Of a DNA stretch of 37,549 nucleotides, positions 1-37,549 are shown in pieces. The position numbers were made by a program, and so were the translations under genes. Each line of letters begins with the position of its first letter. Position 1 is the stretch's first letter. The stretch is from a virus (Duplodnaviria; Caudoviricetes), in the IMG/VR virus record IMGVR_UViG_3300032247_000140, positions 1 through 37,549 of that record, one strand, 5' to 3'. The notes beneath the pieces were generated by a model that was not told where the DNA came from, searched no databases, and worked only from the letters and a program-made list of their open reading frames with translations.

Positions 1-1
1 G

Positions 2-343
2 TCTGATTTTGATATTGGTGATGGTCATAATTTTGGCTTTATATGGCGTCTCATACCAGACATTACCTTTGACGGTTCAACCTCAGCAGCGCCTTCCGCT
101 AACTTTACGGTAAGGCCACGTAATTTCCCCGGTTCTAATTACGGCTCATCAGACGACCCCGCAGTAGCAAGTGCTCAGTCTTATGTATCTACAACCACCT
201 ATAACGTCCAGCAATTTACCCAACAGGTTTATGTGCGGATTAGGGGTAGGCAGATGGCTTTCAAGATTTCCTCAACCGACCTTGGCACGCAGTGGCAGTT
301 AGGCGCACCTCGTATTGATGTCAGACCGGATGGACGCAGATGA
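2..343 (+). CDS. 5'-truncated tail tubular/head-tail stabilisation protein (C-terminal part)
   Basis: Frame 2 is open from the window start: SDFDIGDGHNFGFIWRLIPD...VYVRIRGRQMAFKISSTDLGTQWQLGAPRIDVRPDGRR*. The stop overlaps the next start (ATGA 340-343). The C-terminus resembles podovirus tail tubular B/stabilisation proteins. Confidence 0.65.
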   Translation, partial: SDFDIGDGHNFGFIWRLIPDITFDGSTSAAPSANFTVRPRNFPGSNYGSSDDPAVASAQSYVSTTTYNVQQFTQQVYVRIRGRQMAFKISSTDLGTQWQLGAPRIDVRPDGRR

Positions 344-1002
344 CGGTCTCACAAATCACAACCCAATTACGTCCAACGCAGCAACCTCGCCTGCCTGCGG
401 CTCCGGTTGAGTACGACCGCACATATATAGATTCATTAACAAGTATCTTGCGTCAGTATTTCAACCAACTGGATAACTACACCCAGTCGTCACTAACCAA
501 TACTGGTGGTCGGTTTTCTAGGAATGTATGCGGGTCTTTTCAAGATAGCACTACGCAGACAGCCACGGCTAATACGGCTACGGCAATGATATTTAACACA
601 ACAGATACAACCGCTACAAACAGCATATCTATTGTTTCTAATTCTCAAATTAAAGTTGTTTACCCCGGAATTTATAACCTTCAATTTAGCGCACAGTTTC
701 AAAATACAGACAACGCATCCCATGATGTAAGCATATGGCTACGTCAAAATGGAGTAGATGTGGTAGGTTCTAACGGCATTGTTGGGATGAGTCCGCGTTA
801 TAGCGCAGGCAACTATTTTCATACTATTGCAGGCTGGAACTATTTAGTAAGCATGGCGGCTAGTGATTACCTTCAGTTGTACTGGTCTACAAATAACGCG
901 GCGGTAACTCTTCAAGCCTATGCAGCGGGAGTAACCCCAACGCGCCCAACCACTGCTTCTGTTATAGCCACAATGACGTTTGTGTCTGGACCCCTTACAT
1001 GA
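340..1002 (+). CDS. Tail-associated virion protein with C1q/TNF-like beta-sandwich C-terminus
   Basis: N-terminal LPAAPVEYD plus a helix, then the beta-strand pattern IKVVYPGIYNLQFSAQF...VSMAASDYLQLYW. Coupled to the upstream tail gene. Confidence 0.55.
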   Translation: MTVSQITTQLRPTQQPRLPAAPVEYDRTYIDSLTSILRQYFNQLDNYTQSSLTNTGGRFSRNVCGSFQDSTTQTATANTATAMIFNTTDTTATNSISIVSNSQIKVVYPGIYNLQFSAQFQNTDNASHDVSIWLRQNGVDVVGSNGIVGMSPRYSAGNYFHTIAGWNYLVSMAASDYLQLYWSTNNAAVTLQAYAAGVTPTRPTTASVIATMTFVSGPLT

Positions 1003-1008
1003 TACGAT
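980..1008 (+). promoter_or_regulatory. Possible sigma70 promoter (extended -10) for the cupin/ejection-protein module
   Basis: TTGTGT(980-985)-17 bp-TACGAT(1003-1008) with TG at the extended -10 position. Confidence 0.35.
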
Positions 1009-1029
1009 TGACTTATCTAAAGGACTAGC

Positions 1030-1383
1030 ATGGATATCCCAAACACTAGTGGAAACCCTAACTATGTAAGGCAAAAACCTGATTATGTCGAGTTTGCTGA
1101 AGTAGATGACATTTGGATTCGGGCGTATTCCATACCAAAAGCTAAATCAATTTTGGCCCAACATGTTCATGCGCATGATCATGTGACTTTGGTTTCACGT
1201 GGAACAGTCCAAGCGTGGCAAGACGAAGAAGACATGGGTGAGTTTTCTGCGCCAGCAATCATCACGATACCTGCTGGTAAAAAACATATGTTCATGGCGC
1301 TCACAGATGATGTGAATTTATGCTGCCTGCATAACCTTCGTGGTACGGGACTAGATTTCCCAGAATTGATTAAGGAAGCCTGA
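1030..1383 (+). CDS. Cupin-fold protein
   Basis: Cupin motif 1 QHVHAHDHVTLVSRG and motif 2 IITIPAGKKHMF; SD AAGGA upstream. Confidence 0.8.
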   Translation: MDIPNTSGNPNYVRQKPDYVEFAEVDDIWIRAYSIPKAKSILAQHVHAHDHVTLVSRGTVQAWQDEEDMGEFSAPAIITIPAGKKHMFMALTDDVNLCCLHNLRGTGLDFPELIKEA

Positions 1384-1384
1384 T

Positions 1385-3376
1385 ATGCCAGAAATTTTCT
1401 TTGAAGCGTTTGAACTGGTTGCACCGGAAGCTGCGTCTTCTGTTTTACCTGCTGTTGCCCCCGAGGTTATCGGCACAGCCGCTGGCGCCAATGCGGGAGC
1501 CAATTTCCTTGGCAACATGTCTGCGGTTAACGCAATAGAAAATCCAGCGATAGCCCAAGAGATGACTCAGGCTGGTATTACTGGAGGCGGCGGAGCTGGT
1601 GCAAGCGGTATCAATGAAGAGTTAATTAGGCAACAACAAGCTAAGGCGATGGAGGTTGCTAACTCCGGTATTAATAGAGCAATGACTCCGGCTCAAGAGG
1701 CTTATTTACGTTCTTCTACTGCAAGCGTAGATAAGGTTTTGCCGAATAGTGCTATGCAATATTCCAATCCGTACATAAATCAGCTAAATCCCAATATTAT
1801 GTCGATGGAGACTGCCCCTAGCTCAAACGCACTAAGCAGGGGCATCATGGGAAATCCTTCTGTTAACGTGCCAACGGACTTAGTTGCAAATACAAATATC
1901 CCATCTGTGCCTACAGAAGTGGCAAATGCTAATCTTCCACAGCCGGGTTCTGTACTCGACAACGGCGGCATGACCTCGCCTCCATCTGCATTTGATAGGG
2001 GCTGGATTAAGGCTACGGATTGGATGGACAGCCATAGATTAGAGACCGCTGGTTTAGGTTATTTAGCCGCGTCCAAACTTGGGCTGTTAGATCCAAAGAG
2101 GACAAACTTTAGTAACGAGCCTTACAACGGCCCGCTATCTAGATATCGTATGTCGCCTGACTTTCAGCCGCGTTTTGCTAACCCTACTCAGTTCCAATAT
2201 ACGCCTCGGTATGCAGAGGGCGGCATCATGAGTTACGCCGCAGGCGGTCCAGTTGAGCAAATGTCTAATAACGCGGCTATTGGGGCAAACACTATGTATC
2301 CGATGGCTAACATGACTACGTCTGCATTTGCTACGCCTTACCAAGACCCTAAATCTACTAACATGATGGCATCCATGGCTCCGGCTGGTGGCGGCACAGT
2401 AGATCAAATGTCTGGCGAACCCAACATGCAGGGCACTCGTATGGCTGAAGGTGGCATAGCGCACTACGATTTTGGTGGAGTCATCGGTAATGCCGTCCAG
2501 AATGTTGGTAACGGAATCGGTTCTGCGCTAGGTGGCGTTAGTAATACCGTAGCTGATATTGGCTCTAATATGGGTCATATGTTCAAAGGCGGGGATCAGG
2601 CTGGTTGGGCTAATGTAGAAAAAATGCTAGGTGGCCCACCTACTGCTGATCAGGTGGCTAGAAAATATAGCAATTCAACCTTGTCTCAAAACGGTGTTAA
2701 TCCACAACAATATCAGTATGCGCCCCAATATGCTCAAGGTGGCGTCGCTCATTTCGCTAAAGGTAATCTTGCGGATTCGCTAAATTATTACAACAGCATG
2801 ATCGGCGGTACTGCAGACGAGCAAATGGCTAAGATGCGTACCCCTACTGGTGGACAAGGCGATGCAGGTATTTTTAGAGATACTGATCCAGACACAGCTT
2901 ACTTAAGCGCGCCAGAAGCCGCAGCAGTGCGCATGGCCAAGGTAAATGCTAAAGCTAACATGCAAGGGTTAACCCTACCTAGACCTAAACCCATCGGCAG
3001 AATAAATCTTAAGCCACAGGGAGTTAAACAGGCGGAAGCTAGTGGTTCCTCACTTGATCCTGAGATGGCTGCTTCTGGCGGAATCATGGGTGCTAACCTA
3101 GGCGGCTACGCTGCTGGTGGAAACCCTAGGTTGCTCAAAGGACCGGGGGACGGCATGAGCGACGACATCCCTGCAACTATTGCTAATAGGCAACCTGCTC
3201 GTCTAGCTGATGGCGAGTTCGTAGTTCCAGCCGATGTGGTATCACATTTAGGTAATGGCTCAACCGAAGCAGGCGCTAAGAAACTACATCACATGATGGA
3301 CTCAGTGCGCAAGGCGCGCACTGGCAATTCAAAGCAGGGTAAACAAATCAACCCAAACAAGTTCTTGCCTAAGTAA
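1385..3376 (+). CDS. Internal virion/DNA ejection protein
   Basis: A/G/N/M-rich 663 aa with repeated AxGG motifs. C-terminal GPGDGMSDDIPA...ARLADGEFVVPADVV resembles the GPGTGTSDSIPA..LSNGEFV motif of tape-measure/ejection proteins. Confidence 0.65.
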   Translation: MPEIFFEAFELVAPEAASSVLPAVAPEVIGTAAGANAGANFLGNMSAVNAIENPAIAQEMTQAGITGGGGAGASGINEELIRQQQAKAMEVANSGINRAMTPAQEAYLRSSTASVDKVLPNSAMQYSNPYINQLNPNIMSMETAPSSNALSRGIMGNPSVNVPTDLVANTNIPSVPTEVANANLPQPGSVLDNGGMTSPPSAFDRGWIKATDWMDSHRLETAGLGYLAASKLGLLDPKRTNFSNEPYNGPLSRYRMSPDFQPRFANPTQFQYTPRYAEGGIMSYAAGGPVEQMSNNAAIGANTMYPMANMTTSAFATPYQDPKSTNMMASMAPAGGGTVDQMSGEPNMQGTRMAEGGIAHYDFGGVIGNAVQNVGNGIGSALGGVSNTVADIGSNMGHMFKGGDQAGWANVEKMLGGPPTADQVARKYSNSTLSQNGVNPQQYQYAPQYAQGGVAHFAKGNLADSLNYYNSMIGGTADEQMAKMRTPTGGQGDAGIFRDTDPDTAYLSAPEAAAVRMAKVNAKANMQGLTLPRPKPIGRINLKPQGVKQAEASGSSLDPEMAASGGIMGANLGGYAAGGNPRLLKGPGDGMSDDIPATIANRQPARLADGEFVVPADVVSHLGNGSTEAGAKKLHHMMDSVRKARTGNSKQGKQINPNKFLPK

Positions 3377-3783
3377 TGCCTTTACACTACGTTCCACCTG
3401 TTCAATTACCTACGGTGTGGCCTGTCGCCGCGCCTTTATTGCAGAAAGCTATTGACTTAGATCCGTCTGTAGTAACAATCGAACAAGTTGAGTATGCAGT
3501 TCGTACGGGGCGTACCTTCCTATTAGTCTGGGAAGATCCGGACGAAGGCATCACTGGGGCAGTAACTCTTGAATTTATAGACTACCCGCGCGAGCGAGTG
3601 GCACACGTTGACTTAATGGGTGGTAAAGGCGTTGTCCGTAACCACGTGTTTGAAGAAGCTAAACAATGGATGCGCTCTATGGGTGCAACAAAAGCCCAAT
3701 GTTGGGCAAAGGGAACTCTGGTTCAAATGTACGAGAAGATGGGTATGGAAAATACTCATCAAGTCATGCGGATCAATCTGTAA
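3376..3783 (+). CDS. GNAT-fold acyltransferase-like virion assembly protein
   Basis: 135 aa with the pattern LLVW..GITGAVTLEF..AHVDLMGGKG..EAKQWMRSMGATK...LVQMYEKMG; sits among ejection genes, as T7 gp13/P22 gp14-like genes do. Confidence 0.6.
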   Translation: MPLHYVPPVQLPTVWPVAAPLLQKAIDLDPSVVTIEQVEYAVRTGRTFLLVWEDPDEGITGAVTLEFIDYPRERVAHVDLMGGKGVVRNHVFEEAKQWMRSMGATKAQCWAKGTLVQMYEKMGMENTHQVMRINL

Positions 3784-3797
3784 ATTAGGAGACTCAT

Positions 3798-6263
3798 ATG
3801 GGCGGTGGCGGCGGTGGACAACCCACACAAACAACAAGTACTTCGTATCAAACGAACATACCCGAATACGCACGTCCGTACGTAGAAACAATGCTTGGCG
3901 CGACTCAGCGTCAGTTGTTTCAAGGAACTCCCACAGGCGATGGCGGCTTCAATATAACTGGTTTCCAACCATACAAAGCGTACGGCGGAACGTACGACGA
4001 GCAAGGCAACCAGACTTCTTATGACCCCGGCAAATCAGTAGCTGGGTTCAGTCCTCTACAACAGCAGGCACAACAAGGCGTTGCTGGACTACAAGTGCCC
4101 GGTCAGTTTGATCAAGCTATGCAAGGTACTACCGCTGCAGGTCTTGGCGGCTTTGGGGTGGCTAATCAAGCTAACGTAGGCGGTTTCCAAAATCAAATCG
4201 GTGGGTACATGAACCCATACATGAACCAGATTTTGGCTCCTCAATTAGCGGAGGCTAACCGCAATTACGATATTAGCGGCATGAATCAACAAGCTAAAGC
4301 AACTCAAGCAGGGGCTTTTGGTGGTTCGCGTGAAGCAATCATGGCTGCGGAAAACGAACGCAACCGCAACATGGGGCTTAACCAAATAATTGGTCAAGGG
4401 TACAACCAAGCCTACAACCAAGCACAGCAACAATACAACCAGAACATACAGAACCAACTTGCTGGCTATGGATTGGCTGGACAACAAGCAGGTCAGTTGG
4501 CTGGTATTGCTGGACAAGGGTTGACTGCTCAACAAGGCATCTATGGTCTTCAGAACCAGATGGGCGCACAGCAGCAAGCGCTGGAGCAACAGAAAGTCAA
4601 CCAAGCGATGCAAGACTATGCTAATGCACAGCAGTATCCGCTTATGCAGTTGGGCACTATGTCCAATATGCTGCGTGGCTTGCCAATGCAGGCTCAGACT
4701 ACTAACCAGTACGTTGCGGCTCCTAATCCAATCACTCAGGGTATTGGTGCTGCAGGCGCAGCTGCGTCTTTATATAACGCTACTAAAAATGCTGAAGGCG
4801 GCATGATCAAGTCCATGGCGTCAGGCGGTATTGCATCTGTGCCCCGCTACGATGTGGGCGGCAGAATCCGTGCGCAACTAGAAAACATGGACGCTAAAGA
4901 ACTGCGGCAAGTAGCTGAGACTTCTGAAAGTCCTGAGATGCAGAAGATGGCTAGAGAAATCTTATCTAGAAGCGTACCCGTACAAGCCGCGTCTGGCGGC
5001 ATCATGCATTTTGTTAAAGGTGATGAAGTTGAATCTGATGTAGAACCTCTGCCAAAAGAAGGCGTCATGATGGCGGAAGCAAAAATTCCAGAACCTAAGA
5101 TGGGTGGACAAGCAGATATTCGCGGTATCAATGCTGCGCCTGTGCTTAACAATGTTGGACAAACTAATGCACAAAAAGCTTTTCCGTTGACGTCTGAAGG
5201 CATCATGAGCAACCCTGCTTTTGGCGCTAGTCCAGCTGCGATGGGTTTAGCTAACAAAGCTATTTTGGAAGCTGATAAAACTGAAGAACAACGTAAAGAA
5301 GACTTGAGAGCCAAGTACGGCCCCAACCTTGCCCTGCAAAACTACAGAGCAGAGGAGATGGAGCGCAAAGCAAACTTAGGCGATGAGTTAGCGCGCCAAA
5401 AGAATATGCGTCTTGCTGAATTTTTTGCTACTTGGGGATCAACCCCCGGCCCAACTCTTGTGGCTGGTATGACTGCATTGAAGGCTAAGATTCCTTCATT
5501 CATTGAAGATGAAAAAGAAGCCAGAAAACTAAAACGCGAAGCAGACAAGATCATCTTTGAACTTGATCAAGCTGCGCGCAACGAAGAAATTGGGCTTACA
5601 GATAAAGCCGCTGCGCAAAAGAACGAAGCAACTAAAAATGCTATGGAATTCCAAAAGGTGGTTGAGGCAGCGAAAGAGAAACAACTTGCTGCGGCATCGC
5701 ATGTTAAGAGTTCAGAGCTTACATCTGAGGCCACTAAATTTTCTGCTACTGAACATCGTAGAGCCAGTGAATTAATTGCTGCATCTAATAGAGAAGCTAC
5801 TGCGCAACGCGCAACTGAGGCCAATTCAACTAAGGCTTACCAACAATCTTTAGCTGCACAGGAAGCAGTACGCCGTACAGTAGAAGGCATTGAGAGAGAA
5901 AAGTCTGCACCTAATAGTCAGTATGCGGCGGATATGAAAACCATATCTATGTACGAAGGAGCTGATTTAGATGCGGCGGCTAAGAAACGTCTTGAAGCAG
6001 CCCAAGCACGTGTTGAGGCAAAAAATGAAGAATTCCAAAAACGTATTAATAGCGCTGAGAAAGTAGCAGAGACAAGTACAAACCGCTATCTCGAAATAAA
6101 AGGCGAAGCTCCACCTACTAGTGGCGGCACAAACTCTACTACCACAGAAGAAAGACCATCTTGGGTTCCTAAAGAAGCTAAAAAAGCACAGAATGGTGAT
6201 TGGTATATACCTAATCCAGATAAACCGGGCAAATATCTAAGAGTCAAACCACCTAGTCAATAA
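3798..6263 (+). CDS. DNA ejection/pilot protein
   Basis: SD AGGAG; starts MGGGGGG; Q/G/A-rich N-half with an AGAFGGSR motif, coiled-coil E/K/A-rich C-half, terminal WYIPNPDKPGKY motif. Confidence 0.7.
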   Translation: MGGGGGGQPTQTTSTSYQTNIPEYARPYVETMLGATQRQLFQGTPTGDGGFNITGFQPYKAYGGTYDEQGNQTSYDPGKSVAGFSPLQQQAQQGVAGLQVPGQFDQAMQGTTAAGLGGFGVANQANVGGFQNQIGGYMNPYMNQILAPQLAEANRNYDISGMNQQAKATQAGAFGGSREAIMAAENERNRNMGLNQIIGQGYNQAYNQAQQQYNQNIQNQLAGYGLAGQQAGQLAGIAGQGLTAQQGIYGLQNQMGAQQQALEQQKVNQAMQDYANAQQYPLMQLGTMSNMLRGLPMQAQTTNQYVAAPNPITQGIGAAGAAASLYNATKNAEGGMIKSMASGGIASVPRYDVGGRIRAQLENMDAKELRQVAETSESPEMQKMAREILSRSVPVQAASGGIMHFVKGDEVESDVEPLPKEGVMMAEAKIPEPKMGGQADIRGINAAPVLNNVGQTNAQKAFPLTSEGIMSNPAFGASPAAMGLANKAILEADKTEEQRKEDLRAKYGPNLALQNYRAEEMERKANLGDELARQKNMRLAEFFATWGSTPGPTLVAGMTALKAKIPSFIEDEKEARKLKREADKIIFELDQAARNEEIGLTDKAAAQKNEATKNAMEFQKVVEAAKEKQLAAASHVKSSELTSEATKFSATEHRRASELIAASNREATAQRATEANSTKAYQQSLAAQEAVRRTVEGIEREKSAPNSQYAADMKTISMYEGADLDAAAKKRLEAAQARVEAKNEEFQKRINSAEKVAETSTNRYLEIKGEAPPTSGGTNSTTTEERPSWVPKEAKKAQNGDWYIPNPDKPGKYLRVKPPSQ

Positions 6264-6265
6264 AT

Positions 6266-9200
6266 ATGGCAAAAGAAAAATACATAACGGAAGAGGTCGA
6301 TTACGACCCTTTCGCTAAGAAAGAACCTCAGTATCAAACTGAGGAGGTTGACTTTGACCCCTTTGCCATAAAACAAGAAGAAAAGAAAAAAGCGGCGAAG
6401 GTAGAACCCTATGTACCGCTAAAAACAGAAGAGCGACCACAGGATCAAAGTGTTCTTCGCCAAGTTGCAGACGTTCCTTTAAAGCTAGGGGCTGGACTTG
6501 TCACAGGCGTTCGCATGGTTGCCGATGCTATGGGCGCGGATAGCGGCATATCTAAATCTTTACGTGGTGTAGAAGACTATATAGCTGATCTATATAGCGC
6601 ACAGTCTAAACAAGATAGCAAAGAGATTGCGCGCATCATGAAAGATGCGGAAGATAAAGGTGTAGGCGAACAAGTTTTAGCTGGTGTTAAAGCGTTTTCT
6701 GTAGCGCCTGTTGATATATTAGTAAATGCTCTTGGTACTAGTGCGCCTGCTATTGCTGGTGCTTTGCTTACTACTTTGGCTGCCGCGCCTGCTGCTGTTG
6801 CTACTGCCGCTGGTCTTGGTATCGGCGCGATTATGGGCGCTGGAACTATTAAAGGTTCTGTTTATGATGCCACTAAACAAGTTTTGTCTGAGAAAACAAA
6901 ACTATCTCCACAAGAAATTGAAGCTCGCGCAGTTAAAGCACAAGAGTACGGTGGTGAAAACTTAGATAGTATTTTGATTGGCGCTGGGTTAGGCGCGTTT
7001 GGTGCATCAAGTGGTATTGAGCCTGTAATTGCGCGGCAGTTAGCTAAGAGTATTACTGCTAGAGCCGTAGCTACCGATGCTGAGAAGGCCGCAGCACAAG
7101 CTGCTACAGCCGCCGCAGTTAAAGCATCTACCCGTGAGGCTACAGAAAAAGCCGCTGAACGCGGCGTGTATAAAAACGCTGCAATTACAGGTGTAAAAGA
7201 ATTTGCTGGTGAAGGGCTTGAAGGCGGACAAGAACAGATGGCGCAAAACTATGCGCAAAGACGCGAAGGTTTTGATGTACCGGTATATCAAGGTGTAGTT
7301 AGCCAAGCTACTATGGAAGGTCTTGCTGGCTTGGGCATGGGTTCAGTGGGTGGATACAAAGAAGCTTCTTCTGCTCAACGCGAATTAATGCGGGAGAAGG
7401 TTGAAAAAGAAGGCCCAGATAAAACAACCAAGAACGTGATGACCACGACTGGGTTGACTGGCGAGAAGATAACTCCTAACGCTACTGCTGATGATATAAA
7501 TACTTTGGTGCCAGCCACTAACAAAGCTGGACAGTCTTTAACCGATGCTGCGCCCGAGACTGTAAACGCAAAACAACAAGCTGATGATACGGCTACTAAA
7601 GAAGCTGAAAAAGCTAAGATATCTCTTGATGAAGCCACTACAAAAGCTAACGAACTTATTGCAAAGGTTGACGGTGGTGGAAAATCAAAACAAAGCGAAA
7701 TCCGTCAAACTGCCGCAGGTCTCGGAGTCAAAATCCCGTTTGGTACGTCAAACGCGGATGCGCTCGAAATTATCCGTCAACACATCCAAGGAGCGCAGGG
7801 TGCTACAGGATCTCAACAACAGTCAACTGGAGCAGGCGCTAACGTGGTTACACAGCCCAGTGCAAACGCCCCCGCCGGAGGAACTACAGCAGCTCAACCA
7901 AGTGGAGTGGCTGCTACTAACGCAGCTGCTGCACAACCTGCTGGAGGAAAAGCTGCACAGCCCGCTTCACTAACTAAGACTGCCGCACAACAAGACGAAG
8001 ATTTATTAAAAGGTTTGTTTGGCGATGATGGTTTGCCTTCTGTTGGTAGCGCACGTCGTACCAAAGCGCAGATGGAAATGGATGCCAAGTTAGATCAACT
8101 AGGCAGAAAATACGGCTTAAATCGTAGCGCTGACGAAACACCTAAAGATTTTGGCGCGCGCATTAAAGAAGCTATTGACTTTGAGAAGATGCGTGAAGGA
8201 CAGCCACTGTCCGCCTTGTCTGACCAAGACATCGCTAAACAGACTTTGCGTGAAGACGCATCGTACATACCACCCGACCTGCAGATTGAGGCATACGAAA
8301 AGGCGCGCCAAAAACACAATGAGTCTATAGAGCGAGACCCAGAGACAGGCGAGTTGATGGATGAAGAACTCCCTGCCTATAAAGAGCTTTCCCCCGATGA
8401 CCGACGTGTCTATTTCCAAGAAGGACTAAAGCGCCCCGGTGCTGGTACAGAACAAGAGCATGCTGCCGCAGTCAGAAAACTAGCGGACTATCGTAGCGGT
8501 GTAAAAGAAGAAGCCGAACCGTACCAAATGAAAAACAAAGCTGGTGAACTTTTGTTCAATCCAGATGGCACTCCTATGATGGCGCAAACTACTTTGCCCG
8601 GAGAAAGCCAAGCAAGAGATTCATACAATCGTGAACGTGATGCATTTGGGCGCAAGACAGGTTTATCTTATGCTTTCCCAGCTTGGAATACTTTGTCTCA
8701 AGAAAGCAAACGTGCATATATAGCAATCAATAAAACAGACACTGCACTAGAGCAGGACATGGCATTTCGCGCAGTAAAAAGACAACTACAAGCGGAGAAG
8801 GTTGAGACTGCCGCAGGTGAAAAAACCGAAGCAGAACAATCTAGAGTAACAAATCGTATTCGGGACATCATAGAAAAATCTAGGCTTAGAAAAGAAGATC
8901 GCCTACCTGATCACGTATTAGAGTCTTTATTTAAAGGCGACATCAAAGCCGTACTGAAATACATCAGTGAAGAAGGTAACGGTGTAAAACTTAAAAAAGC
9001 AGCTGACTTCTTTATGTCAGGCACTCGTCGCACTAAGAGCGGCACTATTCTGCCTGTCTTTAAAAAGGCAACCATAAAGATACGCGACTCTATTTCTATG
9101 GGCGTGTTTCGTAGTTTGGCTAGTACGCTTGCGGATATTGACGGTTTAAAAGTTAACGTCGTGTTTGACGAGAACATGATCTACGATCAGCTTGCGCGAT

Positions 9201-12200
9201 ACGATGCTAAAACTAATACGATATATGTTGGCCCTAACGGATTGAATGAAGCAACTATCTTGCATGAGTTAGTGCATGCCGCTACTGTAAAGATAATTCA
9301 TCAGTTCTATACCGATGCATCTAAGCTAACTCCACGTGCTAGACAGGCTGTAGAGCAACTTATTGCTATCGCAGCTGAAGCTAAGAAACGTCTTGGCAGT
9401 AGATTTCCTAATGCGTTTGATAACTTGTATGAGTTTGTGTCGTACTCTCAAACCGACATAGATTTCCAAGAAGCGTTGCACAGAGAACAAGTTGGTAAGT
9501 TAGCAACTACTACTAATAAAACAGAAGAGCAATCTCAAGAACTACAGCTTCAACGCGAATCTACTAAAGGCGCAGCGCTATACGATGGATTAGTTGATAC
9601 CTTATGGAATGCTTACACAGGTACGCTTGCCTATCTATATAAAGTATTTACGCCTAACGCTAAGAATACAAAGATAGTATTGCCGACTGAGAAAACTGGC
9701 TTTGCTCGTAAGCGCACTGCGGCAGAGATTGAAGAAGGTATTGCTTTAGAAAAAGCAGCGCGGGGCGAGAGGCGGCAGACTAGAGAAATGTCAGAGGCTG
9801 AAAAGGAAGCGTTAGCGCCTGAGAAGCTATTTGATAATCCCGATGAGGAAATGGATGAAGCAAGTATTCCTCCAGCTCCACAAGATTTAGTAACGCAATA
9901 TGGTGTAAGCAACTTACAAAGAGCCATACTACGTGAGCCCGGCTACAAAGGCAACTTGCTGCTAGAGGCAGCGGAGATGTTTCAGTTAATTCTTGCTGCA
10001 CCAGAAGGCGGTATTGCACAGTTGGCGGGTAAACAAGGCATCGGCTCAGAACTTGCCGCTACTAAACCAACACCTACTCCGTCTACGCCTGCTGAAAAGA
10101 AAACCCGCGAAGGCGGTATCTACGACAAAGACCTACGTCAGAGCTACAAGCTATCTAAGTTAGAGAAGTTTGGTAGTACGGCTAAAGCGTTCTTAAAACG
10201 TATTACGACTGCGCAAGGTTGGAGAACCACTGCTAAGGAATACATTGACCGTACTTACGCTGTGCGTTATCGTGAGCGCCAGCTTAGTATGGCTGGTTTG
10301 ATTGAACGCGATCCAACTAAAGCGTTTAATAATGTTGCTGAACTGATGACGCTTGCATCAGGCACAGCGCGTAACTATCTAATTCAGTATTTAGATAAAC
10401 CAATGATGGATCTGCGTAGTTCTATTGCAGAGCTAGCTAAGTTAACTAAGAAAAACATTGAGGATGATATTCTTCCAACACTACACATGTTGGGTGAGGC
10501 ATTTGGTGAGCCAGAGAAACGCCACATGAAGTGGGTCTTGAGCGTGCCACTTAGTACAACTAAGAACCTAATGCACAACGGTAAAGCCATCAGTGCGGCG
10601 CAACGTCGTATTGATTTAGTGGGTGATCCTCGCACCGGTAAAGCTGGTATTGTTCAAAAAATAAAGTTAACTCCAGCGCAACAAAAACAAGTGCGCGCTG
10701 AATTAGAAGCATTAGCTAAAAACCATGCTGACGCTTTAGGTGACAGCCCGCGCATTAAGAACGACAAGATACGTGAACGTGCATTAACTAAACGCCAAAA
10801 GAAAAATCAGCTTGGCGTGATGGATATCAACGAGGACAGCGATACCTACAACGTGTTAGGTATTAACAAGCAAGAAGTTGATTTGCGTATGGAGCAGTTC
10901 AATGCTATGAGCGCAGAAGAGAAAGCTCTCATAAACAAGATCATGGATAACATCCGCACAATAACTGCGGAAACTGCTGAACTTAATAAGATCGGTAACT
11001 ACTGGTCATATCCAGTGTCTAACATCGTTGGTATATACGACTACCAGAACTACATGCCGTTCAAAGGTTTGGCTAAACACTCTGTCGTAGATGAGTTAAT
11101 TGACCCAGAAAGCGGTCGCACTAAGACAAGTCGCTTGCTTCAACAAGAAGAACATGCAGCACATGGACGTTTCAGTGTCTCTGACAACCCAATACTGCAG
11201 ACTATGAGCGATGCCTATCGTGCCGCTGGTCGTGCTGGACGTCGTGACTTTATGCAGGCAATCTTGAATGCGGTCAAGCCAGACAAAAAGAAAAATCCAA
11301 ATGGCACGGGAATCATTGATGGCGAAGTTGTAGAGCGCATAGAGTTCCCAGAGCGCGAAACAAAAGATCTATCTAAGTACCAAGGTAAGTCGTACATATT
11401 TGTATACGGGCCTGACGGCAGTCTTAGTATCGTTAAGATTAACGAAAAAGAAATTCTTGAGGCATTGCGCTATCAGTACCAAGAGAATGGTTTTATGCTT
11501 GACATGGCTAGCAAACTAACTAATACAGTTGGTTCGTTCCATACTAGATGGAACATTAACTTTGCGGCTAAAAACTTTGTTAGTGACACACTGCAAAATG
11601 CATGGAAGATCGGTACTGGAATAACAGGCCCGTTAAGCTCGCTCAAGTATCTAGTCGATACAGCTGGTACAACTATAGTTAAAAATGGTCTTGGCAAAGC
11701 CATGCAGGTCGCTATTCTTTATGAAAAGGGTGACGAAGTAAGTAATCGCATGCTGCGAGACTTGATTGAAAAAGACGAGTTTGTCCGTGATATGGTTGAG
11801 CTGTTAAAGATTGGCGGCAAGACTGCTTACCTACAGAGCTACTCGCTTAAATCTAGTTTGCAACAGTTAGAAAAAGAATTGACTACAAATGGCGTAGCCA
11901 AGACTCTAGAAGCAGCTGAAAAGATTGCCGATGTCTGGGGCGCTATGTTTGAATTTACTAGCCGAACCGCTGCATACCAACTGTTCAAACGTGAGTATCT
12001 GAAAAAAGAAATTGAAAAGGGTACGTCCAACGACAGAAATGGCAGGGAGATGTCTCCAGCAGAACAAGCCGCTGCTGTACGTGCCGCTGCGGATACAAAA
12101 AATTTGACCAACTTTGAAGTGGTTGGCTCAAAGTCTAAATATATGAGTGCCCTCTACATGTTTTATAGAGCATCGGCATCTAGTGCCTTGAGTACTATGG

Positions 12201-13378
12201 AAGGCACAGCGCCAGCATTTAGAAGGATGGCGTGGGCTGAGTCTCAGCTACCCGCTAATATACGCAACAACCAAGTAGCTCTAGATAACTGGAGAAAAGA
12301 ATACGCTGTACTACAACGTAATTCGCAGATCATGATCGGTGGTTTGATTGGATTTGGCTACTGTCTGTATCTCATGTCCATGATGCTGGCTCCTGATGAT
12401 GAATGGAAGCGCAACACAACTAAGTATGACAACATGGAGCAGTGGACTCGCTATGCGCGTTTCCATCTACCAGAATCGGTGTTGGGTGCTTTGGGTCTGC
12501 GTAAAGATACAGTGCTGCAAATACCATGGGGCTTCGGTCTAGGTTCGTTTGCATCTATGGGCGCACAGATAGCTGGCATGGTTCATGGGCAGACATCCTT
12601 TAAAGATGGCGCAGCAAATATTGTTGCTGGTTCACTAGCTGATGCATTCCTGCCGTTGCCAATATCTAAGATACCTTTCTCTGAGAAGCCGGGTCTAGCT
12701 GGGTTTGACACGATCATGCCGTCTATCCTGCGCCCTTATTTCGAGTATCTAGTTAATACTGACGGTGTGGGTCGCGGCATTAATAGCACCATGAATCGAC
12801 GTCTAGGCGATGCCTACACAGGTAGCGATCGTGTTCCAGAAGTTTATAAAGACGTAGCTGACTATGCGTTCCGCATATCAAATGGTGAATGGAGTTGGTC
12901 ACCCAACACACTGTATTTCTTTGCCAACAGCTATATAGATGGTATTGCCCGTTTTGGTGAGCTTGGATACTCATTAACTAAAGTTGATACTGGGGCAAAG
13001 AACTTTAATCCCAAGACTGATCTGCCATTGTTTGGTTCATTCTTTGGTGCTAAAGCCAACGTCGATGCAAAAGAATACGGGAACATGGAGTCACGTATTA
13101 AAGAACTAGACAAGCAGCTTTACACACTGGAACAAAAGTATCCAGAGCGCGTGCCTAGATTTGAGAGCCAGTATCCGTTTGCCCGTCCTGTCATAGAGAT
13201 GTATAAACAACGACAAGGCGAACTCAACAAGCTGCGCCACGAGGCGACTGTGATCCGTACAGATAGATACCTATCTCCTAAAGATAAAGAGAGCCGCCTT
13301 AAGATTGTTACGTTTGAAGAGAACTTAATCAAACATGCAATGGTGCAAGACTTTAAAGCTTATGGCATGAAGAACTAG
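6266..13378 (+). CDS. Giant internal virion polyvalent protein (zincin-like metallopeptidase domain; LPD38-like C-terminus)
   Basis: 2370 aa; ARYDAKTNTIYV...ATILHELVHAAT...YEFVS (HExxH plus downstream Glu); hydrophobic G/A-rich segments; C-terminal LQIPWGFGLG...PYFEYLVNTD resembles LPD38. Confidence 0.7.
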   Translation: MAKEKYITEEVDYDPFAKKEPQYQTEEVDFDPFAIKQEEKKKAAKVEPYVPLKTEERPQDQSVLRQVADVPLKLGAGLVTGVRMVADAMGADSGISKSLRGVEDYIADLYSAQSKQDSKEIARIMKDAEDKGVGEQVLAGVKAFSVAPVDILVNALGTSAPAIAGALLTTLAAAPAAVATAAGLGIGAIMGAGTIKGSVYDATKQVLSEKTKLSPQEIEARAVKAQEYGGENLDSILIGAGLGAFGASSGIEPVIARQLAKSITARAVATDAEKAAAQAATAAAVKASTREATEKAAERGVYKNAAITGVKEFAGEGLEGGQEQMAQNYAQRREGFDVPVYQGVVSQATMEGLAGLGMGSVGGYKEASSAQRELMREKVEKEGPDKTTKNVMTTTGLTGEKITPNATADDINTLVPATNKAGQSLTDAAPETVNAKQQADDTATKEAEKAKISLDEATTKANELIAKVDGGGKSKQSEIRQTAAGLGVKIPFGTSNADALEIIRQHIQGAQGATGSQQQSTGAGANVVTQPSANAPAGGTTAAQPSGVAATNAAAAQPAGGKAAQPASLTKTAAQQDEDLLKGLFGDDGLPSVGSARRTKAQMEMDAKLDQLGRKYGLNRSADETPKDFGARIKEAIDFEKMREGQPLSALSDQDIAKQTLREDASYIPPDLQIEAYEKARQKHNESIERDPETGELMDEELPAYKELSPDDRRVYFQEGLKRPGAGTEQEHAAAVRKLADYRSGVKEEAEPYQMKNKAGELLFNPDGTPMMAQTTLPGESQARDSYNRERDAFGRKTGLSYAFPAWNTLSQESKRAYIAINKTDTALEQDMAFRAVKRQLQAEKVETAAGEKTEAEQSRVTNRIRDIIEKSRLRKEDRLPDHVLESLFKGDIKAVLKYISEEGNGVKLKKAADFFMSGTRRTKSGTILPVFKKATIKIRDSISMGVFRSLASTLADIDGLKVNVVFDENMIYDQLARYDAKTNTIYVGPNGLNEATILHELVHAATVKIIHQFYTDASKLTPRARQAVEQLIAIAAEAKKRLGSRFPNAFDNLYEFVSYSQTDIDFQEALHREQVGKLATTTNKTEEQSQELQLQRESTKGAALYDGLVDTLWNAYTGTLAYLYKVFTPNAKNTKIVLPTEKTGFARKRTAAEIEEGIALEKAARGERRQTREMSEAEKEALAPEKLFDNPDEEMDEASIPPAPQDLVTQYGVSNLQRAILREPGYKGNLLLEAAEMFQLILAAPEGGIAQLAGKQGIGSELAATKPTPTPSTPAEKKTREGGIYDKDLRQSYKLSKLEKFGSTAKAFLKRITTAQGWRTTAKEYIDRTYAVRYRERQLSMAGLIERDPTKAFNNVAELMTLASGTARNYLIQYLDKPMMDLRSSIAELAKLTKKNIEDDILPTLHMLGEAFGEPEKRHMKWVLSVPLSTTKNLMHNGKAISAAQRRIDLVGDPRTGKAGIVQKIKLTPAQQKQVRAELEALAKNHADALGDSPRIKNDKIRERALTKRQKKNQLGVMDINEDSDTYNVLGINKQEVDLRMEQFNAMSAEEKALINKIMDNIRTITAETAELNKIGNYWSYPVSNIVGIYDYQNYMPFKGLAKHSVVDELIDPESGRTKTSRLLQQEEHAAHGRFSVSDNPILQTMSDAYRAAGRAGRRDFMQAILNAVKPDKKKNPNGTGIIDGEVVERIEFPERETKDLSKYQGKSYIFVYGPDGSLSIVKINEKEILEALRYQYQENGFMLDMASKLTNTVGSFHTRWNINFAAKNFVSDTLQNAWKIGTGITGPLSSLKYLVDTAGTTIVKNGLGKAMQVAILYEKGDEVSNRMLRDLIEKDEFVRDMVELLKIGGKTAYLQSYSLKSSLQQLEKELTTNGVAKTLEAAEKIADVWGAMFEFTSRTAAYQLFKREYLKKEIEKGTSNDRNGREMSPAEQAAAVRAAADTKNLTNFEVVGSKSKYMSALYMFYRASASSALSTMEGTAPAFRRMAWAESQLPANIRNNQVALDNWRKEYAVLQRNSQIMIGGLIGFGYCLYLMSMMLAPDDEWKRNTTKYDNMEQWTRYARFHLPESVLGALGLRKDTVLQIPWGFGLGSFASMGAQIAGMVHGQTSFKDGAANIVAGSLADAFLPLPISKIPFSEKPGLAGFDTIMPSILRPYFEYLVNTDGVGRGINSTMNRRLGDAYTGSDRVPEVYKDVADYAFRISNGEWSWSPNTLYFFANSYIDGIARFGELGYSLTKVDTGAKNFNPKTDLPLFGSFFGAKANVDAKEYGNMESRIKELDKQLYTLEQKYPERVPRFESQYPFARPVIEMYKQRQGELNKLRHEATVIRTDRYLSPKDKESRLKIVTFEENLIKHAMVQDFKAYGMKN
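6278..6367 (+). repeat. Tandem peptide repeat Y(I/Q)TEEVD(Y/F)DPFA at the N-terminus of the giant protein
   Basis: KYITEEVDYDPFA and QYQTEEVDFDPFA in the translation. Confidence 0.85.
7800..7973 (+). CDS. Putative nested out-of-frame gene, 57 aa, amphipathic helical protein
   Basis: SD AAGGAG at 7788-7793, GTG at 7800, TAA at 7971-7973: MLQDLNNSQLEQALTWLHSPVQTPPPEELQQLNQVEWLLLTQLLHNLLEEKLHSPLH. It coincides with the low-complexity linker of the 2370-aa protein. Confidence 0.55.
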   Translation: MLQDLNNSQLEQALTWLHSPVQTPPPEELQQLNQVEWLLLTQLLHNLLEEKLHSPLH

Positions 13379-36177: not shown

Positions 36178-36396
36178 TTAGCAGTAATAGCGTACTGCGA
36201 TGCGCTGACCAAAGAGGTTGGTCACCTTGCTGAACTGCTGTCTTGCGACAGCATCCTTACGGCTATGAAGCCACATCCAAGCCAGAGCACCTGACTTAGT
36301 CCAAGTCTTATGCACAGTCGTGCAGTCAGACACGCATACCGAGGCGGTATACAAACCGTGGTTACGAACCCACTTACGTATCCCTTTAGTGATCAT
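36178..36396 (-). CDS. First early gene, hypothetical protein
   Basis: SD GGAG; HKTWTKSGALAWM motif. Confidence 0.65.
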   Translation of the reverse strand: MITKGIRKWVRNHGLYTASVCVSDCTTVHKTWTKSGALAWMWLHSRKDAVARQQFSKVTNLFGQRIAVRYYC

Positions 36397-36503
36397 CTAG
36401 ATCTCCCTAAGAGTTAAACATATATGCAAAGCATCATTACCTTGCATACTATACTTATAGCGGATCTGGTGTACCCATTGCAAGTTATAGCGGATAGTCC
36501 ATC

Positions 36504-36558
36504 GCACCCCCACACCCCCAAACCCCATTTGGGTCCCCCCTCATACCCCATACCCCAT
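36504..36558. repeat. C-run tract (G-quadruplex-capable on the minus strand) at the early/late divergence
   Basis: Six runs of four or more C within about 55 bp. Confidence 0.6.
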
Positions 36559-36778
36559 AATGAACACAAATAACACCACAGTTTTTCAAATCTCCACGTA
36601 TATGTCCAGTTTACTCACGAAGTCCCAGCGCCACGCCGAAGCTCCACATCACTATCCATGCGGCATAGCGGGCATTCACCTTTTGCTAGCAGTAAGTACT
36701 TATTGCCGATCTGAAGTACCCCCCTTGTCTTTTTAAACGCTAAAGTCAAAAAATTTTTTACAAAAAATTTCCAAAAAG

Positions 36779-36787
36779 TGGTATATT
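36779..36787 (+). promoter_or_regulatory. Extended -10 promoter with upstream A-tracts for the packaging operon
   Basis: TGGTATATT preceded by repeated A/T tracts at 36748-36777. Confidence 0.55.
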
Positions 36788-36792
36788 CGGCA

Positions 36793-36868
36793 CGCGGTGT
36801 GGAGAAGCAGCCATCTCGTCTGTCCCATAGGCAGAAGAACACAAGTGCAAGTCTTGTCATCGCAACCA
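36793..36868 (+). tRNA. Non-canonical initiator-like tRNA-Met(CAT) or tRNA-like element
   Basis: Cloverleaf: acceptor CGCGGTG/CATCGCA with C1xA72 mismatch, D stem GAGA/TCTC, anticodon stem TCTGT/GCAGA, loop CCCATAG (CAT at 36826-28), T stem ACAAG/CTTGT, discriminator A, encoded CCA. Confidence 0.85.
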
Positions 36869-36883
36869 CACGGAATCTCCGAC

Positions 36884-37459
36884 ATGACAGATATATTAGT
36901 ACCGCCCATAGAGGAAAACATCCCTCTACCGGAAAATGCCAAAGAAGCATTTCCTGATCTCACTGCAGAGCAAGAGCTGCAGATGAGGGCCAACGTCATC
37001 AAACTAATGTCAGACCTGACTGGTCAAGAACTATCTCCAACGAAAGAAAACGCGGAAGAAGCTAAGAAGATAGCGCGGGATATGATCAACAATCCCCAGT
37101 ACCGCCCCGATTACGCCAAGTACCCCAATGAGACTCTAGCTATGTTGGCTGGTATGGTGGCTCAGATGAACGTATCTATCGTTGATGAGCTGTCAGAACT
37201 TAAGATGTACGTGGTAAATAAGCTCGTTGCAGAGATAGAAGCTGCAAAAGACCCCAAGATTCGCGTCGCTGCCCTAGGAAAACTAGGGGAAGTGGACGGA
37301 GTCGATGCGTTTAAGAAGCGTTCTGAGGTAACACATAAGGTTCTTTCTATACAAGAGGTAGAAGCTGAACTATTAGAGACCCTTGGAAGCCTAGAACACA
37401 AGGTAATTGACGTCGAAGCCCGAGAAATCGTGAAAAATGACCCAACAACTAACGCCTGA
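36884..37459 (+). CDS. Putative terminase small subunit
   Basis: Likely start MTDILVPP at 36884; helical protein with RVAALGKLG..GVDAF; first gene of the rightward module, overlapping the next ORF. Confidence 0.55.
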   Translation: MTDILVPPIEENIPLPENAKEAFPDLTAEQELQMRANVIKLMSDLTGQELSPTKENAEEAKKIARDMINNPQYRPDYAKYPNETLAMLAGMVAQMNVSIVDELSELKMYVVNKLVAEIEAAKDPKIRVAALGKLGEVDGVDAFKKRSEVTHKVLSIQEVEAELLETLGSLEHKVIDVEAREIVKNDPTTNA

Positions 37460-37549
37460 ACAGCTATTTAAGCTGCGGCAAGCGTTGCCGACCATGCCTG
37501 ACAAGCAGAAACGGCGTGTTCTTGAGCTTCTAAAGACCTATGACACCCA
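37437..37549 (+). CDS. 3'-truncated ORF, probably terminase large subunit N-terminus
   Basis: MTQQLTPEQLFKLRQALPTMPDKQKRRVLELLKTYDT..., open to the window end; call rests on gene order only. Confidence 0.45.
   Translation, partial: MTQQLTPEQLFKLRQALPTMPDKQKRRVLELLKTYDT

Follow-up and report, generated by a model that had tools for sequence, protein, structure and literature searches.

The best-described counterparts of the element analyzed here are the initiator tRNAs of bacteria, typified by the tRNA-fMet of Escherichia coli (encoded by metZWV and metY), in which the CAU anticodon together with A73 confers methionyl-tRNA synthetase (MetRS) identity, and the determinants of formylation are the lack of a Watson-Crick pair at 1:72, G2:C71, C3:G70 and A11:U24. 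Initiator-type tRNAs are also encoded by phages, for example T5 and D3, and the initiators of eukaryotes are distinguished by an A1:U72 pair and other T-loop features. Processing handles with a tRNA-like shape are known from the punctuation of mitochondrial transcripts and from the MALAT1 mascRNA. Here we describe an initiator-type tRNA-Met(CAU) gene of 76 nt with an encoded CCA end, located at 36793..36868 (+ strand) of IMGVR_UViG_3300032247_000140, the linear virus record of a freshwater phage, which is 37,549 bases long, is estimated to be 59% complete and is referred to below, at its full length, as the window. The assignment is supported by ARAGORN and Rfam calls, by identity to an independent contig, and by covariation of the stems and of positions 18 and 55. 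It appears moderately probable that this is a real and conserved phage-borne gene, which would be transcribed from the +1 of a late promoter, excised from the packaging transcript and used as a formylatable start tRNA late in infection.

The window tRNA shares with E. coli tRNA-fMet the CAU anticodon, C1 opposed to A72 without pairing, G2:C71, C3:G70, A11:U24, A73 and G30:C40, as well as the bases U8, A14, G15, C48, U54 and A58, but differs from it in having C33 instead of U33, A18:G55 instead of G18:U55, A13:U22, G38, and one instead of three G:C pairs in the anticodon stem. Like other phage-encoded initiator-type tRNAs it is a virus-borne CAU tRNA with a mismatch at 1:72, but unlike the genes of phage tRNA clusters it is a single cassette at the late-promoter +1, directly ahead of an open reading frame (ORF) in the small-terminase (terS) position and of the large-terminase gene (terL). 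Should it act as a leader RNA, a reading weighed below, it would be analogous to the processing handles in being a tRNA-shaped module at a transcript boundary, open to cleavage by tRNA-processing enzymes, but it differs from them in keeping its full decoding identity. C33 is further shared, with no homology implied, with the cytoplasmic initiator tRNA-Met of multicellular eukaryotes: excerpts of PMC8887486 state that among human tRNAs C33 is found only in tRNAMet(i), a trait common to multicellular organisms, and that C33 prevents E. coli TsaBCDE from forming t6A37 in vitro.

Identification and structural features of the tRNA

ARAGORN detects a single tRNA in the window, a tRNA-Met with the anticodon CAT at 36793-36868 (+), in agreement with an earlier sequence-only reading of this DNA, which had described a complete initiator-like tRNA and whose listed features can, with one correction given below, all be read in the sequence. 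A local Rfam scan of 36600-37000 assigns the same segment to RF00005 with 42.0 bits (cut-off 29, E 1e-07); it went undetected in the whole-window Rfam gathering scan and in the prefilter of the genome search, apparently as an effect of filtering. A SAM-II match at 36905-36952 (18.6 bits vs a cut-off of 44) was rejected as chance.

All stems of the cloverleaf pair. The D-stem, GAGA/UCUC, yields A11:U24 and A13:U22, the anticodon stem is formed by U27-A43, C28-G42, U29-A41, G30-C40 and U31.G39, and the anticodon loop reads C32 C33 C34 A35 U36 A37 G38. The T-loop UGCAAGU supplies U54, G55, C56, A57 and A58; the bases at the tertiary positions (U8, A14, G15 and C48) are in place, and A73 is followed by the encoded CCA. 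Although the D-loop, AGCAGCCA, lacks a GG, alignment with its homologues resolves it as A14 G15 C16 A18 G19 C20 C20a A21, so that G19 is kept. The tRNA thereby carries both marks used to delimit the variant class discussed below, namely A18 with G55, and C33 with A13:U22 (GAGA/UCUC). A tRNA-Ile2 (lysidine) identity was set aside from general background in view of the 1:72 mismatch.

All known sequence marks of bacterial initiators are thus present, the elements of MetRS identity and formylation included, except two of the three consecutive G:C pairs of the anticodon stem (29:41, 30:40 and 31:39). The sequence-only reading held all three to be lost; 29:41 and 31:39 are indeed not G:C, but the middle pair, G30:C40, is retained and is G:C in each of the ten aligned relatives. 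Because only this pair is kept, and because natural exceptions to the triplet are documented, the window tRNA is best filed as a predicted initiator-type variant rather than as a canonical tRNA-fMet. According to an excerpt of PMC5389676, G30:C40 alone suffices among the three pairs and is essential in E. coli, and the natural exceptions comprise au/GC/GC, GC/GC/gu and au/GC/gu.

Covariation of the stems

A 15-nt word from the 5' end of the tRNA recovers 61 IMG/VR stretches, and ARAGORN, applied to 60 of these (L141 being left out), calls a tRNA-Met at the word in 10; a pattern extending from the D-arm to CCCATA adds 49 further stretches with C33 and a gap of 6-8 nt. In an alignment of 10 phage tRNAs with a TGC T-loop, 99% of the 200 cells of the cloverleaf are paired and 11 of the 20 pairs have changed on both sides, a value reached by none of 500 shuffles, while slid alignments are only 35-50% paired. 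Since the search patterns prescribed the D-arm and the anticodon loop, these parts are uninformative, whereas the acceptor, anticodon and T stems were unselected. G2:C71 and C3:G70 each hold in 9 of the 10 aligned relatives, and across 36 distinct C33 phage sequences position 1:72 is either a mismatch or an A:U pair. Covariation among relatives had been proposed as a check on the initial description, and the stems bear it out; a decayed homologue is seen at one locus (L060, see below).

L119, the closest of these relatives at 81% identity, lies in the corresponding slot of a phage of the same family. The window has G38 (together with G39), whereas A38 is found in nearly all relatives, and G38 and U31.G39 are the only changes specific to the lineage of the window tRNA; they could equally reflect mild decay or adaptation.

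A co-varying alternative to the elbow contact

The bases at positions 18 and 55 change in concert. Among the 36 distinct C33 phage sequences (two rows of which, mis-parsed by the script, were read by eye), all 11 with G55 have an AG-N-AG D-loop (A18 G19) and the 25 with U55 have G18. The 100 distinct U33 phage sequences comprise 20 with A18 and G55, 76 with G18 and U55 (one of these, mislabelled by the script, being counted as corrected), one with C55 and three that were mis-parsed, and the 30 best-scoring Patescibacteria initiators comprise 13 with A18:G55 and 17 with G18:U55. Over the three sets together, A18 is the partner of G55 in each of 44 sequences, and G18 that of U55 in each of 118. 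The compensatory exchange that the sequence-only reading had raised as a possibility is therefore borne out, and the elbow contact is maintained, with a co-varying A18:G55 in place of G18:U55. In one sequence (L170), A19 occurs together with U56. On three large phage contigs the tRNA genes share the same acceptor and T stems, and one of them (L166) has A18:G55 where the other two (L149 and L145) have G18:U55; because these sequences are so closely related, the swap seems to toggle inside a single phage lineage. A full-text literature search found no paper on an A18:G55 swap or on the initiator tRNAs of candidate phyla.

Conservation and decay of the gene

An independent metagenome contig (L191) carries a tRNA identical to that of the window at 76 of 76 positions, while its flanks have diverged: the promoter matches at 56 of 60 positions, the spacer at 12 of 15, the downstream coding sequence at 257 of 340 (76%) and the region further upstream at 82 of 140 (59%). 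Among Logan contigs, a 105-nt piece from another run (X9) lies on 36772-36875 without any difference, and two longer ones show 10 differences and one gap over 36684-37250 (X2) and 77 differences and four gaps over 36718-37250 (X7), none of the differences listed for either being inside the tRNA. Among the sequencing runs listed as carrying this sequence, none is of RNA. An exact 26-nt search of IMG/VR gave no match. A metagenome scan for G38-type copies returned four loci, of which only L191 contains the tRNA, the remaining three (L192-L194) being chance matches.

Several observations weigh against a functional gene. Within a sample of 80 relatives of the 191-aa ORF downstream of the tRNA, taken from approximately 1200 related IMG/VR stretches (an estimate), the cassette appears dispensable, as it is absent in 78 and present in two with identical tRNAs (L063 and L064); the tRNA model likewise finds no match in five long relatives, three complete with terminal repeats and two near-complete. 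In a further relative the same slot holds a decayed tRNA homologue (L060:2515-2601; 15.3 bits, E 0.81 with the phage-tRNA model), in which the D and T arms are no longer recognizable but a closing helix remains, together with an anticodon-like arm (CTAGG CCCATAG CCTAG) that shares G38 with the window. The window copy is itself the most deviant of its group, with its U31.G39 and an A/U-rich T stem, and its G38 is able to pair with C32, whereby the anticodon loop would shrink to 5 nt. Its predicted minimum-energy fold (-22.8 kcal/mol) differs from the cloverleaf (-17.2, or -19.8 with a C32:G38 pair), and the fold z-score against shuffles is -2.06.

The absence from most relatives, the decayed copy in L060 and the discrepancy between cloverleaf and minimum-energy fold would also be expected of a decaying pseudogene or an attachment-site remnant. 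Yet complete identity of the tRNA across phages whose flanks are 59-76% identical, the pairing of all stems, the retention of the identity elements together with the encoded CCA, and the lack of any integrase recognized among the ORFs scanned with Pfam and PHROG make such a remnant exceedingly improbable. A working initiator-type tRNA, rather than a leader or a pseudogene, is favored by the retained identity elements, by the covariation of the elbow and by the complete conservation (76/76), and L060 illustrates the outcome of relaxed selection.

Phyletic distribution of the variant class

Initiator-type tRNAs with C33 are estimated to occur in approximately 830 stretches of species-representative genomes, of which 120 loci were sampled; among these are DPANN archaea, Weissella, Leuconostoc, Fructobacillus, Mycoplasma, Omnitrophota and Patescibacteria. 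The combination of a GAGA D-stem, A18, C33 and G55 is found in 8 of 123 such tRNAs from cellular genomes, five in named Patescibacteria lineages, two in genomes of 0.5-0.7 Mb and one in a metagenome-assembled genome (MAG) labelled 'Gammaproteobacteria'. Among viruses, the form combining a GAGA D-stem with U33 is estimated at approximately 670 IMG/VR stretches.

In five small Patescibacteria genomes the variant tRNA is the single initiator candidate, scoring 81-95 bits against at most 61 for the next best with a search model built from the phage tRNAs, and it adjoins a canonical elongator tRNA-Met and a tRNA-Asp. These native initiators (e.g. L435-L439) share with the window tRNA the GAGA/UCUC stem, an AGYAGYA D-loop (A18), C33, a UGCRA T-loop (G55) and the 1:72 mismatch, but differ in having two G:C pairs (au/GC/GC) and A38, in often lacking an encoded CCA, and in being placed in a Met-Met-Asp tRNA cluster rather than behind a phage promoter. 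The traits vary within the phylum, C33 being present in 6 and GAGA in 9 of the 30 best Patescibacteria initiators. In a control of 151 Pseudomonadota genomes, the 30 best matches are 29 canonical initiators and a phage-type tRNA (GAGA, A18, C33, G55, encoded CCA) on a 7-kb contig (C418, L545) of the 3.8-Mb 'Gammaproteobacteria' MAG (G412), whose own initiator, on another contig (C282, L550), is canonical; eight further Pseudomonadota matches lower in the list are all canonical. The closest cellular copies match the window tRNA at 56 of 73 (L227) and 53 of 73 positions (L196), and the latter matches a phage copy (L097) at 63 of 72.

The cultured Leuconostocaceae (Weissella, Leuconostoc, Fructobacillus, Convivina and Eupransor; loci including L200, L208, L210, L214, L233, L246, L269 and L292) have C33 on otherwise canonical initiators, and C33 is therefore not confined to phages, bacteria of the candidate phyla radiation (CPR) or eukaryotes. 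In the DPANN archaea (L195, L217, L257, L258, L262, L265 and L273), several C33 initiator-type genes cease to resemble a tRNA after CCCATAA or CCCATAT, a break as expected for a putative intron beside the anticodon loop.

Because native Patescibacteria initiators share them, and because A18:G55 also occurs in about 20% of the sampled phage initiator-type tRNAs, C33, A18:G55, the GAGA D-stem and the reduced set of anticodon-stem G:C pairs are class traits and not a signature of the window phage. The initial description of a rewired anticodon arm, which rested on C33 and the lost G:C pairs, was accordingly overstated, and the window tRNA is likely to be a working tRNA of a little-described variant rather than a uniquely rewired one.

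The same comparison bears on the proposal that the gene is a nuclease-resistant substitute or decoy, in which C33, G38 and the weakening of the stem would be adaptations to a host tRNase, e.g. of the VapC type, that targets the host initiator and that the phage copy evades. In favor of this, the two lineage-specific changes of the window tRNA are at positions 38 and 39, which we take to lie at the VapC cut site, and in G412 a phage-type copy occurs along with the canonical initiator. As a general hypothesis escape of this kind has been published, and VapC of enteric bacteria is reported to target tRNA-fMet (excerpts of PMC10264068, with the VapC target also cited in an excerpt of PMC12482277); the former also notes that tRNA-fMet is generally avoided by phages in settings where VapC-LT2 acts, which runs counter to the proposal. 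Since C33, A18:G55 and the reduced G:C pairs are native to cellular Patescibacteria initiators, and A18:G55 is common in the sampled phage initiator-type tRNAs, these features are not readable as a specific escape signature; nor did Pfam and PHROG scans recognize a defense or counter-defense gene beside the tRNA. Selection for nuclease escape is thus an unlikely account of the window tRNA.

Alternatively, the tRNA could be a copy of a host initiator, with the phage family infecting Patescibacteria. Five of the eight exact GAGA/A18/C33/G55 sets being in Patescibacteria lineages, and two in small genomes, speaks for this, as does the occurrence of A18:G55 in 13 of the 30 best Patescibacteria initiators vs none of the 29 best canonical and none of the eight lower-listed Pseudomonadota ones. 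A18:G55 is, however, also found in 20 of the 100 U33 phage tRNAs, the listed size of whose contigs reaches 376 kb (L361); a contig of 198 kb carries the C33 copy L166, and the pair L166/L149 differs exactly by the swap; the au/GC/GC stem of L097 is that of alphaproteobacterial-type initiators (L584 and L588); and among cultured phages, the nearest in terL have Pelagibacter (47-48% identity) or cyanobacteria as hosts. The phage helicase yields only distant helicase matches (23-28% identity) in 13 of 401 Patescibacteria genomes, and these are uninformative as to the host. A Patescibacteria host is hence possible but weakly supported, and descent of the tRNA from such a host seems to us improbable.

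A promoter-proximal slot for interchangeable RNAs

The tRNA is preceded by a predicted late promoter, comprising an extended -10 element, TGgTATATT (36779..36787, +), and an inferred -35-like hexamer, TTTACA (36757..36762, +), 19 nt upstream of the -10. TTTACA is part of a 34-nt block that is unique in the window and is kept in L001-L005 and L191. A consensus promoter and terminator scan of 36200-37549 flagged nothing; the 19-nt spacing of the two hexamers exceeds the 16-18 nt allowed by the tool. Of the 80 relatives examined, 76 extend far enough upstream to be assessed, and all of these have a TGnTAYAnT- or TATAYT-type word ahead of the first late gene. Five bases separate the -10 hexamer from C1, and 15 bases (36869..36883, +) separate A76 from the ATG at 36884; as read from the sequence, this spacer holds a weak Shine-Dalgarno-like GGAA at 36872-36875, where relatives have ACGGAG (GGAG). 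The sequence-only reading was thus right that the tRNA ends 15 nt before the ATG of a gene without a strong Shine-Dalgarno sequence. It was also right in placing the element at the predicted start of transcription and before the packaging genes, terL following the 191-aa ORF.

Homologous tRNAs occupy the same slot in L063, L064, L133 and L119, in each case with 5 nt from the hexamer to C1, and in L001-L003 and L005, the nearest relatives with 83-92% identity over the ORF, the same promoter is followed directly by GCAACGGAG...ATG. Of the 76 relatives, 16 appear leaderless, their ATG beginning 7-8 nt past the -10 hexamer (L030, L032, L033, L053, L055, L057, L065-L070, L072, L073, L075 and L079); leaders of 19-33 nt are present in 49, and the other 11 carry inserts of 96-127 nt. 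The inserts comprise two tRNAs, the decayed tRNA-like element of L060, and four members each of two further classes, termed d and e. Class d (L007:102-201, L010:2869-2968, L013:2877-2975, L024:2878-2977 and L492:215-313) is a structured RNA of about 100 nt at the predicted +1, with a GTTGG../..CCAAC closing helix and an inner hairpin showing compensatory changes; 13 of its 32 predicted pairs have changed on both sides among five sequences. A possible AGAGA/TCTCT pseudoknot in this class is invariant, so that it is uninformative for covariation. A pattern scan of IMG/VR for class d returned 45 stretches, of which six are real (L472, L488, L491, L492, L493 and L507) and the rest chance; three of these (L492, L493 and L507) have the element behind a similar promoter with different downstream sequence. 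Class e (L048:2888-2964, L058:336-416 and L062:461-542) is an element of about 80 nt in this slot; it has an inner helix and a closing helix of 9 bp (GTTAGCGCA/TGCGCTAAC), and it varies little, only one pair having changed on both sides among three sequences. Rfam at E<=1 on 10 loci returned three tRNAs and two weak chance matches, and nothing for the class d and e RNAs.

In each of the 14 insert-bearing loci examined, the closing helix has its first paired G at the seventh base after the hexamer, with a pyrimidine before it, this G being G2 in the tRNA; most inserts have ACC after the closing helix. The start is predicted at position 7-8 after the hexamer because leaderless relatives have their ATG there, and for the tRNA we infer that transcripts start at G2 or C1.

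These regularities allow for a role mainly in cis, in which the element would be a 5'-terminal structured leader of the packaging mRNA, serving as an end-protecting helix or as a tRNA-like processing handle. The structured inserts in the same slot of 11 of the 76 relatives, the constant position of the first paired G, the covariation of class d and the recurrent ACC all favor it, and in this respect the leader RNA suggested by the sequence-only reading gains from the other structured RNAs in the +1 slot. A leader, on the other hand, needs no CAU, A73, CCA, 1:72 mismatch, A11:U24, G30:C40 or co-varying elbow, all of which are kept, and 49 of the 76 relatives have no such structure and 16 no leader at all. 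A mainly cis-acting element accordingly strikes us as a minority possibility, although the leader and tRNA roles are compatible and not mutually exclusive. In a broader and rather speculative version, which we regard with some doubt, the late-promoter +1 would be a swap-in slot for 5'-terminal tRNA-like modules, among them an initiator tRNA and at least two unrelated structured RNAs, each closing in an acceptor-like helix; these modules would set the 5' end and fate of the packaging mRNA via host tRNA-processing enzymes, the tRNA module doubling as a start tRNA made without RNase P.

Genomic context

The tRNA gene site is a divergent region that heads the late (packaging and structural) gene block. 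The last of the + strand genes at 1-13378 is a 2370-aa ORF that weakly matches the N4-type virion RNA polymerase, and replication genes (DNA polymerase, helicases and primase-helicase) follow on the - strand at 13568-36212. The 191-aa ORF (36884..37459, +) has no PHROG or Pfam match, and its small-terminase function is proposed from position only. The 5' end of terL (37437..37549, +), which runs off the window, encodes a segment that agrees at 32 of 37 positions with the N-terminus of the L021 protein, which in turn matches PHROG 38, terminase large subunit, with E 2e-101; in relatives, terL lies directly downstream of the homologue of the 191-aa ORF. In terL, the nearest cultured phages are Phage DSL-LC04 (51% identity) and the Pelagibacter phages HTVC027P and HTVC023P (47-48%), the Synechococcus/Planktothrix phage group being 43% identical, and blastn of 36400-37549 against cultured phages gave no match. 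Pfam and PHROG scans of the window recognized no translation- or tRNA-related enzyme.

The divergent intergenic region contains C-rich tracts at 36500-36560 (ACCCCC, CCCCCAAACCCC, TCCCCCC and ACCCC repeats), and relatives have in common, upstream of the late promoter, a ACACCCCCC box with a short imperfect hairpin behind it. The C-rich region and the box may serve the opposite gene block as a promoter or terminator.

Functional and evolutionary implications

If the gene provides a formylatable start tRNA, as we favor, transcription starting at G2 (or C1) would leave little or no 5' processing, and the 3' cut would follow the encoded CCA. The product would then be charged by MetRS, formylated and used in initiation. 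The phage might benefit from extra initiation capacity late in infection, or from the replacement of a depleted or cleaved host initiator.

Phage-borne tRNAs are now mostly interpreted as counter-defense, and the present case suggests that features resembling escape, such as C33, a TGC T-loop and a weak set of anticodon-stem G:C pairs, can be ordinary traits of a class common to cellular initiators. Annotation pipelines may overlook tRNAs of the A18:G55/C33 variant class. The near-universal G18:U55 elbow contact has a co-varying alternative, A18:G55, that is frequent in the initiators of phages and Patescibacteria, and the swap bears on tRNA maturation, namely on Psi55, Gm18 and RNase P. Finally, the existence of a single promoter-proximal slot with interchangeable RNA modules would bear on how phages of this family handle their late transcripts.

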